This document shows positions 42,078 to 61,037 of a DNA stretch of 64,000 nucleotides, one piece after another. Source of the stretch: an uncultured Nitrospiraceae bacterium. GTDB lineage: Bacteria > Nitrospirota > Thermodesulfovibrionia > Thermodesulfovibrionales > SM23-35. The position numbers and the translations under genes are program-made. The DNA lies in the NCBI GenBank assembly GCA_963727775.1, contig CAVSHB010000003.1:160001-224000 (forward strand). Direction: 5' to 3'. The first letter of the stretch is position 1. Every line of letters begins with the position of its first letter. A model generated the notes under the pieces. That model made no database searches. It was not told the origin of the DNA and saw nothing but the letters and a program-made list of their open reading frames with translations.

Positions 42078-43355
42078 CTAAGCAGCAATTGTTACCGTAT
42101 CCTGAAATCTCCGTTTGTCTCTTAAGAGTGCAAAGATTAGCTTGATCAGCTTTATTGCTACTGCGCACAGGATCTCTTTCTTCCTCGGCAGTTGACCAAA
42201 CCGGTTCTTTGTCTGCAATTTTCGTTGATAATATTCTTGAAAATAGTTGGTGAGGACTACCACCCTCATGCTCATAAAGAAAAGACACTTCCTTAAGAGC
42301 CAGCGTCCCTTTTTGGATATGAACTTGCGGCTTATCCTATAACCGGAATCGCTCTCCTGTGGATCATATCCTGCATATTTGACGATCTGACGGGCGTTTT
42401 GAAAATACGCCAGGTCTCCTAACTCTCCTAAGAAGATAGCGGCTGAAAGGGGGCCTATACCTGGGATGCTCAATAAATACTCCGAATAGGGGATCTCCTT
42501 TAGTGTGCTTTTCATCTGTCGGTCAATATCCTTGAGCATCAGTACGGTCCGTTTCACTTCTTCCAGACATATCTTTACCCTGTAGCGATCCGTACTGCCG
42601 ATTCGTTTTACTCCAATGCTCTTTATTGCTGCCTGCTGGAGAGCTTTTGCTTTTTCGGCTGCTCCCGCCTTCTTCCTTGAGCTGTGGGCGATCAGTTCCT
42701 TGATAACTGCGTGTTTCATCGATACCACATCCTCGGGAAACGGACACAAATCAAGGATTGCCCATAAACTCCGGGAATTCATTGACCAAAATATCTCATG
42801 CAGCTCAGGGAAATAGTCATCCAGTGCAGCATGAAGCGCATTTTTCGCTCCCACGCTATATCTCAAGAGTCTCTCCCTTACTTTCGACAATGTCCTTAGC
42901 TGTCTTACCACCCCGTCTTCAATTACGGTATCGATATATTTACCCTCTCTGGTGATATTCGCTATGGTCAATGCATCTCTTTTATCGCTCTTTGCAGAGG
43001 AACTCTCGTCAAGTTCCCGATGATGCTTCAGGGCCGTAGTCCGTACAAACCGAACTTCATAACCCTTCTCTTTTCCAAAGTAGGCAAGCTTCCTCCAGTA
43101 GTGCCCTGTCGGTTCCATCCCAATGAGCACGCTGTTCATGCCATACTTTGCTTTAAAACCCTCTGTCATCTTTACAAACTGCTCAAATCCTTCACGGTTG
43201 TTGTACAGTTTGGCGCAACTCCCCAACACGTTGCCCTCTTTGTTCATGAACCCCACCGCATTCCATGCATTCCCTACGTCCACTCCTATGACCAGGGTCT
43301 CCCTACTAATCCTTTCACGCTTTGCTACCTGCTTGTTATAATCTTTCTCAGACAT
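42078..43355 (-). CDS. IS110-family DEDD recombinase/transposase
   Basis: IGVDVG, GMEPTGHYW, KSDKRDA, LLSIPGIG, YAGYDPQESDSG, ISKKG. Confidence 0.95.
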   Translation of the reverse strand: MSEKDYNKQVAKRERISRETLVIGVDVGNAWNAVGFMNKEGNVLGSCAKLYNNREGFEQFVKMTEGFKAKYGMNSVLIGMEPTGHYWRKLAYFGKEKGYEVRFVRTTALKHHRELDESSSAKSDKRDALTIANITREGKYIDTVIEDGVVRQLRTLSKVRERLLRYSVGAKNALHAALDDYFPELHEIFWSMNSRSLWAILDLCPFPEDVVSMKHAVIKELIAHSSRKKAGAAEKAKALQQAAIKSIGVKRIGSTDRYRVKICLEEVKRTVLMLKDIDRQMKSTLKEIPYSEYLLSIPGIGPLSAAIFLGELGDLAYFQNARQIVKYAGYDPQESDSGYRISRKFISKKGRWLLRKCLFFMSMRVVVLTNYFQEYYQRKLQTKNRFGQLPRKKEILCAVAIKLIKLIFALLRDKRRFQDTVTIAA

Positions 43356-53038: not shown

Positions 53039-53065
53039 AGAACTAAACCGCTGCGCGGTGGTAAC
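53039..53065 (+). repeat. 27-bp direct repeat, copy 2
   Basis: Identical to 44681-44707. Confidence 0.9.
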
Positions 53066-53223
53066 GAGGCGTCGATCTTTTCTGGATAAAGATAGACCTT
53101 TTTCTGAGTTGTAGAAGTTAGCCCGTTATCTCCCCCCTTGTTGAAGAGTCGAAGTCTTTTTACAATCTCCTTTGTTTCCCCGTCGGCCTTCGTCGGCGCA
53201 TATCGATTCAAAGGAGATGTAAT

Positions 53224-54066
53224 ATGAGCACGTGGAGAGAACAGATGTTGACAGACCTTTAGTTGAAAGGCATCACCCCCAGGACCCAGAATAAATATCT
53301 CAGAGAGGTTAACATGAAGGCGGATTATTTTGATAAACCGCTTGAGGAACTTAGGGAGAAAGAAGTAAAGGATTATCTGGTTCATATGCTGGATACCAGG
53401 AAGTTATCAAGAGGTACGTACAGAGGCTATGTGGCAGGAATCAAGTTTTTGTATAAGACAACCTTAAATCGTGAAGAGGTGGTAGAGAAGATCCAATATC
53501 CGAAGGCCAAAAAAACGCTGCCCGTAGTGCTGGATCTTGCTGAAATCAAGACTTTGCTTTCCGTCATGGAGAATCTTAAGCACAGGGCGCTGCTGACGAT
53601 TACCTATTCCGCAGGACTGAGAGTCAGCGAAGCAGCAAAGCTGAAGGTGACCGATATAGACAGCAAGCGGATGATGGTACGTGTGCAACAGGGCAAGGGT
53701 AGGAAGGACCGCTATAGCATCCTGTCGCAAACCGCCCTCGAGTTATTGAGGCAATACTGGCGGCAGTATCGTCCAAAGGAATGGTTATTCGAGGGACAGA
53801 AAGAAGGTACCCACATATGCTATACGGCGATACGGCAGATATTTGTTGAAGCCATGAAGAGGGCTGGCATTACAAAACCGGCGAGCCCTCATACCCTAAG
53901 GCACAGTTTTGCCACTCATCTGATAGAGGCGGGGACCAGCCTGCACCATGTCCAGTTGCTCCTGGGCCACAGGTCTCCCACAACCACAACCGTTTATCTT
54001 CATGTCAGCAAGATGAACCTCGCACAGGTCACCAGTCCCCTCGATAGTATACCCGAAGAGCTTTAA
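53224..54066 (+). pseudogene. Tyrosine recombinase (IS91-associated) with early in-frame TAG
   Basis: AAGGAG RBS and ATG 53224 give MSTWREQMLTDL*LKGITPRTQ; catalytic motifs YSAGLRVSE, HTLRHSFATH, LLGH, TTVY are intact. Confidence 0.85.
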
Positions 54067-55158
54067 AGCTTTTAACGGTATCATCGATGCGGACGTCTCA
54101 GGGCGTCGAGGTGGCCGATATCTTCCGTCAGTACGGTCAAGATCCCACCGGATGCCTATTAATCATCTGCGTGCTATGCACGCCATTGAGGTGTGCAGGA
54201 CTGCAATTCTTGGCGGACATAGGTATAAGTACACTTGCGGCCATGTAGACACATCTTACAACTCTTGCCGGAACAGGCACTGTCCCAAGTGTCAGACACT
54301 GCAGAAGGAAAAGTGGATAGAGGCCAGGTGTGAGAAGACCTATTGCCCATTCAATACTTCCAATGTGGGCTTCACCATACCATCAGAGTTAAATCCCCTG
54401 GTCATTATGAACCAGAGGGTCATGTACAACATATTATTCTGCTCGGTATCCGAGACACTTATGGAGCTCTCCAATAATCCGAAACACCTCGGCGCACATA
54501 CAGGCTTTATCGGCATCCTTCACACCTGGGGACAAAACCTTATGGATCATCCCCATATTCACTGTGTCGTACCCGGCGGCGGATTGTCACCTGATGGAAA
54601 ACATTGGGTATCGTGCAGGAAAGGTTTTTTCATGCCTGTAAGGGTTATGTCCTCATTGTTCAGGGGCAAGTTCCTGGACCATCTCAAAAACAGGTTTGAA
54701 TCAGGTGATCTTATCTTCCCTGGCGGTATCCGTCATCTTAAAGACCCCGGAACCTTTGAGGTGTTCAGAGGACAGTTCTACCATAAGAAGTGGGTTGTAT
54801 ATTGCAAGCCGCCTTTTGACGGCGCCGAGGGTGTCTTTAAGTATCTGGGCAGATATACCCACAGGATTGCTATCAGTAATAATCGTGTCCTAAACGTTGA
54901 AGACGGCAATGTTTCCTTCCGCTGGCGGGACTATGCCGATGGTGATAAACAAAAGATCATGACTCTTAAGGCCGATGAGTTCATAAGAAGGTTCCTTCTT
55001 CATGTGCTTCCGCATCGATTTGTGCGCATAAGATTATGTGTTTAAGCACATAACCTGATTTATGTTATATATTCACTTATGTTGCGTCGTTTGTGAAAGG
55101 CCTTGTTATTGCACAATGTCATCGTTAACGACACAACATAAGTAAATCCCTCTTCGGG

Positions 55159-56154
55159 TTAAAGTGCTTTTAAGAATGCCATCAACCCCGGCTGATCTTT
55201 CCACCGTCTTGATTGCTCTGAAGTAAATATCTCACAGTGGGCAAGTGCCTTTGCCTTCATTTCGAGATCGACCTCAGCATAGACATTTGTGGTATCTAGC
55301 GACACATGCCCCAGCCATGCACGGATTGTATTAATATCCACACCTGCGCGAAGAAGGTGAACTGCGCAGGTATGACGAATTATATGTGCACTGACTCTTT
55401 TCGTTCTCATTGAGGGGACTTTGTTGCTTGCTTTGATAACATAACGCCTAACGAGGGCATGAATGCCGAAGCGAGTGATTGTCTGCCCCCGACAGTTGAG
55501 GAAAACCTGTTCGCTATCCTGGCGATCGGCAATGAGAGTGCGTAAAGTATTGGCTGTTAAAGACCATAAAGGACAGATTCGTGTCTTGCCTCCCTTGCCT
55601 TTAATCTTGACTGAAAGCGAATAATCCAGGTCGAGATCGTCTACAGTCATATTCGCAGCTTCATGGGCGCGGGCGCCAGTATTGTAAAGAAAAAGAAGTA
55701 CGGCATAATCTCTAAAGCCTTGTTTGGTGGAAGTAACGGGAGCATTAAGCAGGGCATCCATTTCTTGTTTGTCGAGATAAGACATCGCAGCCTTTGCAGT
55801 TTTTTTGAAAGGGATAGCTCTGATCTGTCCACACCAGATGATGTGTTCCGGACATCGTTCGCCGATAAAACCGGCGAGGGCGTGAATTGCGGCAAGGCGC
55901 TGGTTGCGAGTGGCTATAGAACAGGATCGATGCTCCTCTATATAAAGCAGAAAAAGACGAATTACCTCAGGGGATATATGCTCTACAAGCAGCTTGTCTA
56001 TAGGTTTTCTGACCTTCTCAGCGATGAAAGGGAGCATCAAGGCCAGAGCATCGCGATAACTGGATTGTGTATTTAGCGACAGATTACGCTCTTCCACCAA
56101 GTATTCCATAAGGAAGCGTCGCACCCAATATCCGATAGAAGTTACGTTAGACAT
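55159..56154 (-). CDS. RitC-type tyrosine recombinase
   Basis: TRNQRLAAIH, LYNTGAR, HIIRHTCA, WLGHVSLDTTNVY. Confidence 0.9.
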   Translation of the reverse strand: MSNVTSIGYWVRRFLMEYLVEERNLSLNTQSSYRDALALMLPFIAEKVRKPIDKLLVEHISPEVIRLFLLYIEEHRSCSIATRNQRLAAIHALAGFIGERCPEHIIWCGQIRAIPFKKTAKAAMSYLDKQEMDALLNAPVTSTKQGFRDYAVLLFLYNTGARAHEAANMTVDDLDLDYSLSVKIKGKGGKTRICPLWSLTANTLRTLIADRQDSEQVFLNCRGQTITRFGIHALVRRYVIKASNKVPSMRTKRVSAHIIRHTCAVHLLRAGVDINTIRAWLGHVSLDTTNVYAEVDLEMKAKALAHCEIFTSEQSRRWKDQPGLMAFLKAL

Positions 56155-57091
56155 GATTCACGTCCGATAGAACATAATGTTCAAAACGCAAATTTGCTTC
56201 CCGCAAAAGATCAGGAGTCATGCTCAAATAGCATTGGGTCTCCGCCACATCAGTATGGCCCAAATAGGTTGATAATTGAGGCAGCAAGCGCTGGACATCA
56301 GCGCCTTCCCGGTACCAGGCTTCAAGACGGTGAACTGAAAAAGTGTGACGAAGGTCGTGAATCCTGGGATAGTATCGAGTGCCGTCCCGGCGAGGCATCC
56401 CGGATAGGTTTCGCAAACGACTGAAAGTTTTTTGCATGCGGCCATAGGATAAAGCGTGGCCAGTGCGTGTGGCAAAAAAGGCGGAATCTTCCTTAAGTCG
56501 GCAGGGCAACAGTCGCCTTTTTCCCAGATAGGAGTCAAGGTGGTCAGTTAACCGAGGGCCGATGGGTACGAGACGTGTCTTATAGAATTTGGTATTGCGC
56601 ACTGTGATAAGGCTATCCGAAACGTTAACATCAGCAATCGTTAGAGAAAGCGCTTCGCTGATACGAAGGCCTGTTCCATAAAGGGTAAGCAAAATGGTTC
56701 GGAAGGTGGTTGCCTGAAGAGGACTTATTGGGGATTTAAGCGAGTTGGTAGCGGAAAGGAGGCGGTGCAGTTCCTCGGTGGTGTAAATATATGGTTCCAG
56801 AGTCGCCGGACGTTTAGGTACCATCTTTGGAAGCGGAGACTTGTCGATATGACCATGGGTCAGAGCAAAGCGATAGAAACCACAGAGGACTTCATACTTC
56901 CGGTGCCAGAAGGTAGTGATCGGACCTTCACCTGCAAGGAATGCTGCTGCAGTATCGGGATTAACTTCTTCGATCTCTATATCGCCCATAGCTTTGCAAA
57001 AAGATCTGAGTACCACAGCATCAGACCGGTAACACATACCAATGGACTGTTTTAGCGACACATACTCGGTAACAAGTTCTGAGAGTTTCAT
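56147..57091 (-). CDS. RitB-type tyrosine recombinase
   Basis: YGTGLRISEA, TKFYKTRLVP, PRIHDLRHTF, LSTYLGH. Confidence 0.9.
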   Translation of the reverse strand: MKLSELVTEYVSLKQSIGMCYRSDAVVLRSFCKAMGDIEIEEVNPDTAAAFLAGEGPITTFWHRKYEVLCGFYRFALTHGHIDKSPLPKMVPKRPATLEPYIYTTEELHRLLSATNSLKSPISPLQATTFRTILLTLYGTGLRISEALSLTIADVNVSDSLITVRNTKFYKTRLVPIGPRLTDHLDSYLGKRRLLPCRLKEDSAFFATRTGHALSYGRMQKTFSRLRNLSGMPRRDGTRYYPRIHDLRHTFSVHRLEAWYREGADVQRLLPQLSTYLGHTDVAETQCYLSMTPDLLREANLRFEHYVLSDVNHV

Positions 57092-58328
57092 TCCAGCCCT
57101 CCCATATCAAACTTAGCTACCTCGCGAAGACCTGACAGATTCACCTTGGCATAGATCCTCGTGGAGAGAGAACTTCGATGCCCTAGGTGATCGCCGACCT
57201 CCTTGAGGGAGAAGCCCTCGGCAACCAGGTGGGCGGCGCACGCATGCCGCAATGAGTGGGGCCCATGATGGTGAGTGCGTATCCCGAGCTTCACCATTCT
57301 GTTACTGACCACAGGATAAAGTGCTCCTAATGAAAAAGGACGATATGGGGGCAAGAGAGTGAGAAATATCTCTCGATATGAAGAGTGGGGACGCACTTCC
57401 TGTAAATAGCGGATTATCGCGTTGCCTACTATTGGGATCAATGGGTATGTTTGTCTTCCTCTCAGCTTAACTCGGGGTACCGACATAAGTCTCTGTTCCC
57501 AGTCGATATCGTCAAGCCTGAGAGTTGCTACCTCAGTTGATCTCAACCCATAGATCGCAAAAAGCATCACGATGGGTTTGTCTCGTATGTCACTGGCTTG
57601 ATCTGTCTCCATGCTCTCTATCAAGAGTCTCACGTTTCCCCAAGATGGTCCCGACGGCAATTGTTCTTGGGCAAAGATACGAGGGCCACGTATATCGGGG
57701 GCAATTGAAGACGAACACCACCCCCGTGAAGCCGCGTACTTGAAAAAGGCCTTCAGCGCGGTCGCCATGTGTTTAACCGATATGCGACAATTGCCCTTGT
57801 CACCGTAATGGGTAAGAAACGCGTCAATATCTTTGAGGCAAACGGCTGAGATATCACAACTCCGAGTGCCATACCAGCGTAGAAACCGTTCAACGTAAGA
57901 GCAGTTCCCTCGGATAGTCTGAGAAGTGAACCCTCGTTCGTTCTTCATCCATGTCCTGAAATCTTCAAGCAAATGACCAAACGGAATGGAAGTATCTTCT
58001 CTCCAACAGCCCAAAAAACGTAGCCACGATCTTGCTGCATTGACAAAGCGACTGCGAGTACAGTGCGGATTAAGCGCTTTTCCCCAATATCGTTCCCGTT
58101 CTGTCCATCCTCGGGCAACAGCTCGACCTGATTCAGGGTTACTCCGTTTTCAAAAGAAATACGTAGCTTCTTTGCGACCCATAAAAGTTCTCGCGCAATG
58201 TTCTGTAAAGTCGAGAGAGAATATCCTTCTTGCTCGCAGTGCTTAAGATAACGCTCCCTCTCCTCTTTGTACGGGGCCTTCTTGTGACGGGATAGAATTG
58301 AGAGTTTTGTGTAAAGCTTTTCAAACAT
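57088..58328 (-). pseudogene. RitA-type tyrosine recombinase, 1-bp frameshift near 58120
   Basis: N-terminus MFEKLY...ERERYLKH (GGAGG RBS) joins AVARGW...SWLRFLGCW in another frame; YGLRSTEV, HSLRHACA, LGHRS, TRIYAK. Confidence 0.85.
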
Positions 58329-59106
58329 GACCGGACCTCCTCTAATAGAGACTTTCCAGCCATATAACGGCAATTACTTATGTGTTGTCAAATCAAAAAT
58401 AATCATTGCAAATTAAGAAAATTGACTGACTTCACAACATAAGTGAATACATAACATAAATCAGGCACTTCGGACTCCTCGCAAACAGAAAGCGTAAAGA
58501 CAACATCGCGCTATGCCGTAAGCTCATCGGCAGTTGTAAAACCGAAACAAAAGAAGAAGAAGAAGAAAAATCAGAGACCTGGCAGGATCAGTTGCTCAGA
58601 ATCTACGGTATCGATATCAATACCTGCCCGGTTTGCAAGAAGGGCACAATGGTCACGATTGAGTATTTGCTCCCTTCCAGGTGCAATAGCCCTCCGGATC
58701 GATACTGATGCACACCGGCGATAGCTCAAAAATCATAGCTCTATCAACCTGCGAAAACAGCATCCTGTTTCGCTATGCTCCCCTATTGTCTGAAATCAGA
58801 CCTTGGGATACTATCCAGCTGCAATGGTCGCAATCTCAGCCTCAATTTTCGTATCAGGATGATCTCATGCAGATCAAAATAAGACAGATGCTCCATAAAC
58901 CATATCCTCTTCGATAGAAAAAGTTCCGGGAGAATTAATCGAATCCCCATATCCGGCGCACCGGCTTAGTTATATATAGAAATGGCATAAGATCAAACTT
59001 CCCCATTCAATCATAAGGGAGACTAATTTTATAGCTATTAAAAAATAGAAACCTCCTGTAAGAATAAGTTTATGGAGAAACAAAATTCTTTTGACAGGAG
59101 GTTTCT

Positions 59107-60399
59107 ATGGAACAAGTAGATGGTATCAGACTTAGGGAGTTTCGACAAGTCAAGAAAGAGATACGTGGCTCCGATCAGTATTTGATCATCGGCATCGACG
59201 TGGCTAAAGAGAAGCACAATGCCTTTTTCGGCACGGCTAACGGCAAAACGCTGCACAAGGGAGTGATCTTTGACAACACGATTGAAGGATTCGAGAAACT
59301 GCTGACGCTGACAGAAGCGCTTAAGGTCCAGCATGACCTTACAAAGGTGGTCTTTGGTCTTGAGCCCACAGCCAATTACCATAAGCCTCTGGGAGAGCAT
59401 CTTATTAAGTGTGGGCATATGGTTGTTTTGGTAGCGGGGACGGCAGTAAAAAACAACCGCACGCTTCTGGATGGCAGATGGGATAAGCACGACACCAAGG
59501 ATTCCTCTAACGTAGCCGACCTCATTTCCCAAGGGAAATTCCTATTCTATGAATATCCGGATCCGAAGATGCGGGATCTGAGGAATCTCCTTTCCTTAAA
59601 GAGACGACTCAAGAAAGAGGAACATGGCCTCCGGGTTCGCATCCGCAATCAGCTTCTGGCCCAGTATTTCCCTGAAATGGACCGCCACTTCGGCCCAGCG
59701 GTGAGCATGGCTGTAGTCGGACGCTGTCTTAATCCCTCGGTGATCGCCGGGATGGAATTCGATGAATTCCGCAGGCACGTTGCCCTCAGCAGAATGAATA
59801 TTGCCCAACAAAAGCTGCTGCAGGCGATCTGGCAGATAGCCCCTGATTCCATTGGATGTTATGTAGGAGACGCAGTGCCGTTCGAGGCGAAGGTGATGGT
59901 ATCCATGCTTAATCAGGTGCGAGAGACGATCAAAGAGGTGGAAGATAAAATAGAGGATATGTGCCTACAGTTTCCGGAATACCCATGCCTTTTGAGTATC
60001 CCTGGCTTTGGGCCGGATGTCTCATCAAAGGTTCTCGGGGCGATAGGTAATCCCTTTCGCTTTACGAGCGACAAGCAGGTCCTGAAGATGGCTGGTTTCG
60101 ACCTTTGCGCGGAGCGAAGCGGAAAGACTTCAAACAGCGTAACGCCGGTAATCTCCAAACAAGGGAAAGCCGATCTTCGCTACGCCTTATATCAGGCTGC
60201 TCTAATCGCTTCCTTTCATAACAAAGATTTTACGATTTATTACACCAATAAGCTCAGAGGTCGGCAGAGGGAAAAGGGAATTAGTACGAAGATGCGTGTA
60301 AAGATAGCCGCAAAGCTTTTGGTTATCGCATGGACCTTGATGAAAAAGAAGGAGCTATTCGATCCAAAATATCTCAATAAGGGGGATATCCAAATATAG
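59107..60399 (+). CDS. IS110-family DEDD recombinase/transposase
   Basis: IGIDVAK, GLEPTANYH, KHDTKDS, LLSIPGFG, AERSGK, ISKQG. Confidence 0.95.
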   Translation: MEQVDGIRLREFRQVKKEIRGSDQYLIIGIDVAKEKHNAFFGTANGKTLHKGVIFDNTIEGFEKLLTLTEALKVQHDLTKVVFGLEPTANYHKPLGEHLIKCGHMVVLVAGTAVKNNRTLLDGRWDKHDTKDSSNVADLISQGKFLFYEYPDPKMRDLRNLLSLKRRLKKEEHGLRVRIRNQLLAQYFPEMDRHFGPAVSMAVVGRCLNPSVIAGMEFDEFRRHVALSRMNIAQQKLLQAIWQIAPDSIGCYVGDAVPFEAKVMVSMLNQVRETIKEVEDKIEDMCLQFPEYPCLLSIPGFGPDVSSKVLGAIGNPFRFTSDKQVLKMAGFDLCAERSGKTSNSVTPVISKQGKADLRYALYQAALIASFHNKDFTIYYTNKLRGRQREKGISTKMRVKIAAKLLVIAWTLMKKKELFDPKYLNKGDIQI

Positions 60400-60464
60400 G
60401 CCACATCAAAAGAACTTAACTGAGGGCTTCCTGTGAAGCCGTTTCTGTTCTGGAGGCCCCAAAA

Positions 60465-60650
60465 ACAAGACGCAGAGAGCCCGAGCTTGGCTTAGTTGAG
60501 GCGAAAGACCTCGTGGAGAACAATATAGGGCCTATCACTGAACTTGAGAGTCTGGATAAGGGATGATGGGCGGTACGCTCAATGCGGAACACGTCGGATA
60601 AACGTAACTATCAGAGATCAAGTTCGATTGTAGTGAGAGAGTGCGTCGAG
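60465..60650 (+). ncRNA. Putative bridge RNA of IS110 element 2
   Basis: GGCTTAGTT-[GAGG CGAAAGA CCTC]-GTGGAGAAC loop matches the insertion site; outer pairing GACGCA/TGCGTC; boundaries approximate. Confidence 0.8.
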
Positions 60651-61037
60651 AAAAAATACTATCGTCCAGATGGACGTACGGCAGACTATTGTTCTTGCAA
60701 GATCTCGGATAACGATCATTGATATTTAAGTAAATTTCCCAGATGTTTTTTGTCTTGACAGGAGGCACTATAGGATGTTCTCCACACGTTATTCCGCAAC
60801 TTCGCAGCGGAATAACGCTTATTCGTAATCAATAAAACCCGCCTTTTTTTGTGAAAAACATCCCCGTGTATTACGTAAAAACAGAACGAGAATCCGCAGC
60901 CCCAAACAGCCGTTATCTTTTTCAGGCGTACATCCATAGGTATCGCCTACAGCCTTTGTATGGCGGTAATTTTTACTTGCAAAAGAAAGTGGCCTTTGCT
61001 AATAATAACTCACCTTAGTTTTTAAAGGAGACCTTAT

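Follow-up and report, generated by a model that had tools for sequence, protein, structure and literature searches.

A candidate bridge-RNA-guided IS110-type insertion sequence near the end of an integrase-IS91 element in Nitrospirota

The closest described systems to the element studied here are IS621 and ISCro4, the only PDB sequence matches of its recombinase (E 1e-15 and 6e-14). In the parts of the reports available to us (PMC11208160, PMC11208158), these elements have DEDD and serine domains, a 2-nt core, a target loop in which the left guide precedes the right, a separate donor loop, a handshake base and a short ATA...TAT inverted repeat (the last from PMC11208160). The element analyzed in this study lies in a window of 64,000 nucleotides from an uncultured Nitrospiraceae bacterium (contig CAVSHB010000003.1, positions 160,001 to 224,000) and, as far as its sequence can be read, shares all of these features. 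It differs from the published descriptions in that its RNA would be encoded in the right end instead of the left, its core is GT instead of CT, its protein is 430 aa as opposed to 328-341 aa, and its target is the end of a mobile element as opposed to a REP. Our results suggest that the element is a real and intact-looking bridge-recombinase system, unusually well supported by natural covariation. The original prediction presented it as a complete candidate system readable from sequence, which is the published norm for the IS110 family.

The element and its recombinase gene

We read the insertion as a 1,806-bp IS110-family insertion sequence lying between two GT cores, and consider it very likely that the bridge-RNA interpretation of the whole is correct. 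The core copies are found at 58969..58970 and 60777..60778 (both + strand), and every full copy and most homologues have GT at each junction. A core of GTT had been predicted; we reject the third base, since the nucleotide after GT varies at the right junctions of homologues (C 44, A 10, T 6, G 1; n = 61), making the additional T shared by the window junctions a coincidence. At left junctions a T after GT was demanded by the parser, and its presence in 55/55 there carries no evidence.

The left non-coding end (136 bp; 58971..59106, + strand) holds a short inverted-repeat arm, TATAG (58975-58979), a Shine-Dalgarno sequence, GGAGG (59097-59101), and an AT-rich, -10-like start that may act as a promoter. 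It is followed by the recombinase gene (59107..60399, + strand), which runs uninterrupted for 430 aa, as predicted, and matches PF01548, PF02371 and NF033542 (168.8 bits for the last, with a cut-off of 140). The protein is predicted to combine a DEDD RuvC domain with a C-terminal domain bearing the catalytic serine; D31, E86, D129, D132 and S338 are intact and invariant across 11 aligned proteins, and the closest homologues come from Nitrospirota bins. The right end, at 377 bp, is longer than the left, placing the long non-coding region downstream of the gene. Its tip (60755..60776, + strand) includes the left donor half GGAT, a TTGACA box (60755-60760) and the second inverted-repeat arm, CTATA (60768-60772). 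This repeat is 5 bp in the window element and ATA/TAT across the family.

By analogy with IS621 and ISEc21, the element would be expressed, its RNA and protein would assemble into a ribonucleoprotein, and the DEDD/serine recombinase would use the same chemistry to join the element ends into a circle. Joining the ends sets TTGACA 18 nt upstream of TATATA, which may form a junction promoter whose -10 box scores only 4/6; no promoter-like site was found in the linear element. The circle junction was not found in the genome assembly, nor was any joint found among the contigs of four sequencing runs, where the RNA runs yielded contigs from relatives alone.

A second IS110 type, 28% identical, is located in the window at 42081-43355 (minus strand). 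It is present as four full copies, its right end is long and AAG is repeated at its junctions; elsewhere the genome carries a third type.

Predicted bridge RNA and guide covariation

The right end is predicted to encode a two-loop bridge RNA (about 60475-60626, + strand), in agreement with the original placement of the RNA 3′ of the gene. An Rfam search of the window returned tmRNA only and no bridge-RNA family. The target-binding loop (60475..60536, + strand), identified from its fold and from guide/flank covariation, consists of a basal stem (60475-60482/60528-60536), the left guide followed by GT (60488-60494 + GT), a 15-nt hairpin (60498-60512), the right guide followed by AC (60513-60519 + AC) and a handshake A (60522). 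The matches that drew attention to the locus were confirmed: the left flank at 58963-58971 equals 60489-60497, the right flank at 60777-60785 recurs as its reverse complement at 60513-60521, and the hairpin separates the two guide matches. Neither 9-mer has any further occurrence in the window. An exact guide match had been claimed, and this holds for the 7-bp right target half (60779..60785, + strand), which is 7/7 complementary to the right guide. The 7-bp left half (58962..58968, + strand) is identical to the left guide at 6/7 positions, with the seventh a U:G wobble, and other sites often match in part, especially on the right.

Such matches could be due to chance or to a duplication made by insertion, with no guiding role. 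The 9-mers are short, and when the 377-nt right end was shuffled 20,000 times with dinucleotides preserved, the left 8-mer (lacking its final T) appeared 83 times and the right 9-mer 67 times, or in 0.3-0.4% of shuffles each. However, both appeared together only once, the matches hold a fixed position within a conserved fold, and covariation spans dozens of different guides, which already contradicts this explanation and leaves it a vanishingly small probability.

To measure the covariation 89 loci were gathered, of which 15 without a parsable target loop and four duplicates were removed to leave 70, and junction positions were set from conserved end motifs, independently of the guides. Left guides matched their own flank at 5.46/7 positions compared to 3.01 when shuffled (52 loci), or 5.38 compared to 3.09 with one locus per distinct guide (34 guides). 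Right guides matched at 4.51/7 positions compared to 2.81 (59 loci), or 4.42 compared to 2.62 (26 guides). With the commonest guide type removed, the values were 5.43 versus 2.76 on the left (n = 21) and 4.83 versus 2.38 on the right (n = 12). The observed value was reached in 0/20,000 shuffles in each test, counts that overstate the significance because the loci are kin. Homologues with differing guides sit at other, matching sites, the covariation that the original prediction had proposed as a check, and its target loop pairing with both strands is thereby supported.

Match rates were highest beside the core (0.97 on the left; 0.96, 0.96 and 0.88 on the right), far right-guide positions matched in only 27-46% of guides, and a few loci fitted poorly on the left (L039 at 2/7, L038 and L057 at 3/7) or on the right (L029 at 1/7, L006 at 3/7). 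Newer work, in the portions available, favours copy-out excision and half-match recombination, which could explain the partial sites. The left guides of L015, L029 and L068 have AT where the GT core is expected, and at L015 and L029 the left junction lacks a normal GT while the right junction retains it. One genome carries six homologue copies (L074-L079) at six different sites with a single guide pair, matching at 4-7 of 7 positions on the left and 5-6 of 7 on the right, a natural mismatch-tolerance series. On the single contig L129 (93-140, minus strand), an IS91-like end motif in palindromic form is joined at the left guide to the hairpin of the target loop and replaces the 5′ part of the RNA; either the guide gene recombined with target-like DNA or the contig is mis-assembled.

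A donor loop had been guessed at about 60550-60610 and was found at 60560-60609, inside a donor-binding loop (60539..60626, + strand) with an outer and an inner stem, in which helices 3-5 carry compensatory changes. [quoted passage not shown] It could be argued that the target loop works alone, as a seekRNA, with the ends recognized by protein and the second loop being structural, given that the donor pairing is short (5 + 4 nt in the window copy) and that short seekRNAs suffice for ISEc11 and ISEc21 in the available text of PMC11187229. What speaks against this is that one right-tip donor position tracks the donor guide through four states in 57/57 parsed loci (G 41, T 14, C 1, A 1), though this is one column with few independent changes, 14/16 non-G rows sharing one state. 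Handshake pairing also covaries with the target, as the base after TAAC is able to pair with the last left-target base in 46/48 distinct guide sets, resembling the pattern described in the part of PMC11208158 available to us. A target loop acting alone is very unlikely in our estimation. With both loops at work, as we prefer, the left guide would pair with the bottom strand and the right guide with the top strand of the 7+GT+7 target, the donor loop would pair with the joined element ends (GGAT-GT-TA), and the recombinase would then insert the circle into the target by recombination.

For a 28-pair, five-helix structure, pairing across 42 aligned RNAs is 96.7% compared to 31-48% when slid, a result favoured by deriving the structure from the same alignment that scores it. 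Both sides have changed in 11 of the 28 pairs across the 42 sequences, with zero doubly changed pairs in the target-loop basal stem, and the window RNA alone folds no better than shuffles (z -1.2 and -1.4). Position 60534 is A in the window and C in three sister copies and in a sequencing-run DNA contig; this A disrupts one base pair in the basal stem of the target loop and is either a recent mutation or a sequencing error.

The landing site within an integrase-IS91 element

The interrupted host element (53041..58968, + strand) begins at an inverted end motif (53041-53057), its other end, and carries a tyrosine integrase (53263-54066) and an IS91 (Y2) transposase (54152-55045, with a tail near 58440-58710) that is itself interrupted by three tyrosine-recombinase genes (about 55054-58465). 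We take this three-gene block to be RIT-like. It has 31-bp inverted ends, and in a further copy (C1:340-344 kb) it is inverted and found with a different integrase. The left target half belongs to the conserved sub-terminal motif of the host element, and on the right the remaining 47 bp of the IS91-like 3′ end (60779..60825, + strand) include a hairpin and terminate in GCTTATTCG. This 3′ end is presumably a rolling-circle origin. The 47 bp are identical in three copies, with the flanks diverging beyond. For rolling-circle IS91 ends, the part of PMC5714925 available to us gives a general model only.

Matches to this end were found in 33/390 genomes of the class. Among 36 fetched stretches, 28 had an uninterrupted end of the form CGGC(T/A)T(A/C/G)-GT-(C/T)CTTC.. 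followed by the hairpin, and the 8 unparsed stretches include a variant missed by the pattern (L091), an IS110-interrupted end (L095) and truncated stretches. The distance to the end is 47-48 bp in 24/28 and 82-87 bp in 4/28, and the 28 ends continue into 27 different flanks. Since the conserved end extends 47-48 bp past the motif, the IS91-like element includes both halves of the target, which lie 47 bp inside its end; the 15-bp target had been predicted to be the terminus of a mobile element and is instead sub-terminal. Assigning the right target half to host DNA or a REP was rejected, given its conservation at IS91-like ends in the same 28/36 stretches. CGGCTTA is present in 14/28 uninterrupted ends; the right half in the window, TCTCCAC, is in 0/28, yet matches the guide of the window copy exactly. 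The assembly has no unoccupied copy of the exact 15-bp target, and its best empty sites (9 sites) have 3 mismatches of 14.

The genome contains four full copies of the IS110-type element (99.8% identity), one paralogue and one 95% partial copy. Three full copies have both flanks in common, extending 47 bp to the right before diverging. As all three composites stop precisely at the IS91-like terminus and the flanks beyond it differ, the composite may have been copied with its host element. The fourth (C3:109 kb) occupies a different, chromosomal site matching the guides at 6/7 + 4/7. Other copies had been named as a test of the original prediction, and the sister copies share their ends and are flanked by sequences that fit the guides. 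The paralogue (about 89-90% identical) has a split reading frame and different guides, and it sits at a different site that matches those guides at 7/7 and 5/7, a palindrome built from the hairpin of the same IS91-like end.

Lone palindromes of the IS91-like terminal hairpin are found at C1:630 kb, C3:359 kb and C1:291 kb, one of them being the paralogue's landing site, and are possibly non-autonomous derivatives. Another lies just past the window end (C3:224025-224083, minus strand), 3.2 kb from 60777-60825. The paralogue's left target makes up its first 9 nt, and its other 49 nt are the right flank of the window element, inverted; it may be a hybrid recombination product.

We tentatively propose, as a possibility still short of probable, that a Nitrospirota IS110-type lineage with a 3′ bridge RNA has specialized on integrase-IS91 elements and hitch-hikes on them, inserting 47 bp inside the 3′ end, keeping the terminal hairpin, being copied with the host, and having its guides re-tuned to motif variants or to a second site. 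The guides appear to be directed at a motif that is conserved at each end of integrase-IS91 elements, with lower-fidelity spill-over to look-alike chromosomal sites. When metagenome loci were selected by guide only, 5 loci were obtained, and all 3 with both junctions lie within the IS91-like end motif. A gapped pattern search of 390 genomes matched 9, two of which (L140, L141) are chance-like; the pattern is too narrow and misses the window's own copy.

It is also conceivable that the RNA guides the element and that the IS91-like end is an incidental match, with no specialization. Most homologues carry other guides, and at 2/7 sites carrying this guide type, those of the C3:109 kb copy and of the C2:588 kb partial copy, neither an integrase nor an IS91 transposase was matched within about 5 kb. 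In a tree built from 21 chosen proteins, the end-targeting elements and the paralogue group together with support of 93/91, below the tool's threshold. On the other hand, 5/7 sites are in the motif (the window site, with its three copies taken once, and L001, L128, L130 and L132), and L001 is upstream of an integrase. In another genus a truncated relative occupies the same position as the window element, relatives have right guides identical to the most frequent variants of the uninterrupted end, and the paralogue targets the palindrome of the same end's hairpin. We regard an incidental match as unlikely. The landing site extends the list of mobile elements targeted by RNA-guided insertion sequences to integrase-IS91 ends.

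Comparison with other IS110-family elements

Targets within other mobile elements have already been published for IS110-type elements in the available text of PMC11187229. In the literature accessible to us, nothing relevant was found on IS110 or IS1111 elements inserting in IS91 ends, and subscription papers, ISfinder and supplements may list the clade or target. This branch of the family and the landing site it prefers seem not to have been described before, while the mechanism is a known one and is unchanged by our findings. With all four guides and also the handshake base located through natural variation, direct testing and reprogramming of the system are possible.

The same available text (PMC11187229) allows a comparison with ISEc21, in which, as in the window element, the bottom-strand match precedes the top-strand match, and whose target is inside another IS family (IS3), as the window target is inside an IS91-like element. 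Natural reprogramming among relatives is likewise common to ISEc21/IS110-type elements and the window family. ISEc21 differs in having an upstream RNA, a 358-aa protein and a target in a transposase gene. The IS1111 group (ISEc11, ISPa11, ISKpn4), in the sources available, shares with the window element an RNA downstream of the gene, and the group, including IS4321/IS5075, also targets the ends of other mobile elements (Tn21 inverted repeats, attC). The original prediction had assigned the element broadly to IS110/IS1111; the IS110 part stands and IS1111 membership was rejected on three features, namely sub-terminal inverted repeats of 7-17 bp (usually 11-13) in that group as opposed to 5 bp here, a transposase of 330-350 aa as opposed to 430 aa, and guides that place the top-strand complement first as opposed to the bottom-strand match.

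As in the IS110 group in the narrow sense, the bottom-strand match comes first, the inverted repeat is short and the protein is within the limit of 455 aa, but the RNA is downstream instead of in the usual upstream position. In the part of PMC11187229 available, 430 aa falls in a 395-455 aa IS110-type subgroup, and a downstream non-coding region in some IS110-type elements is a published exception. The best named plasmid match is an ISRel25-family IS110 transposase (NC_007762; 92% of the protein, 29.6% identical), and all 861 plasmid records with a match are <60% identical. On its predicted features, the element is IS110-type in protein length (430 aa), guide order and short inverted repeat, with an IS1111-like RNA position, and it would add to the bridge recombinases a clade with a native GT core and a 430-aa protein, distant from the two members with solved structures.
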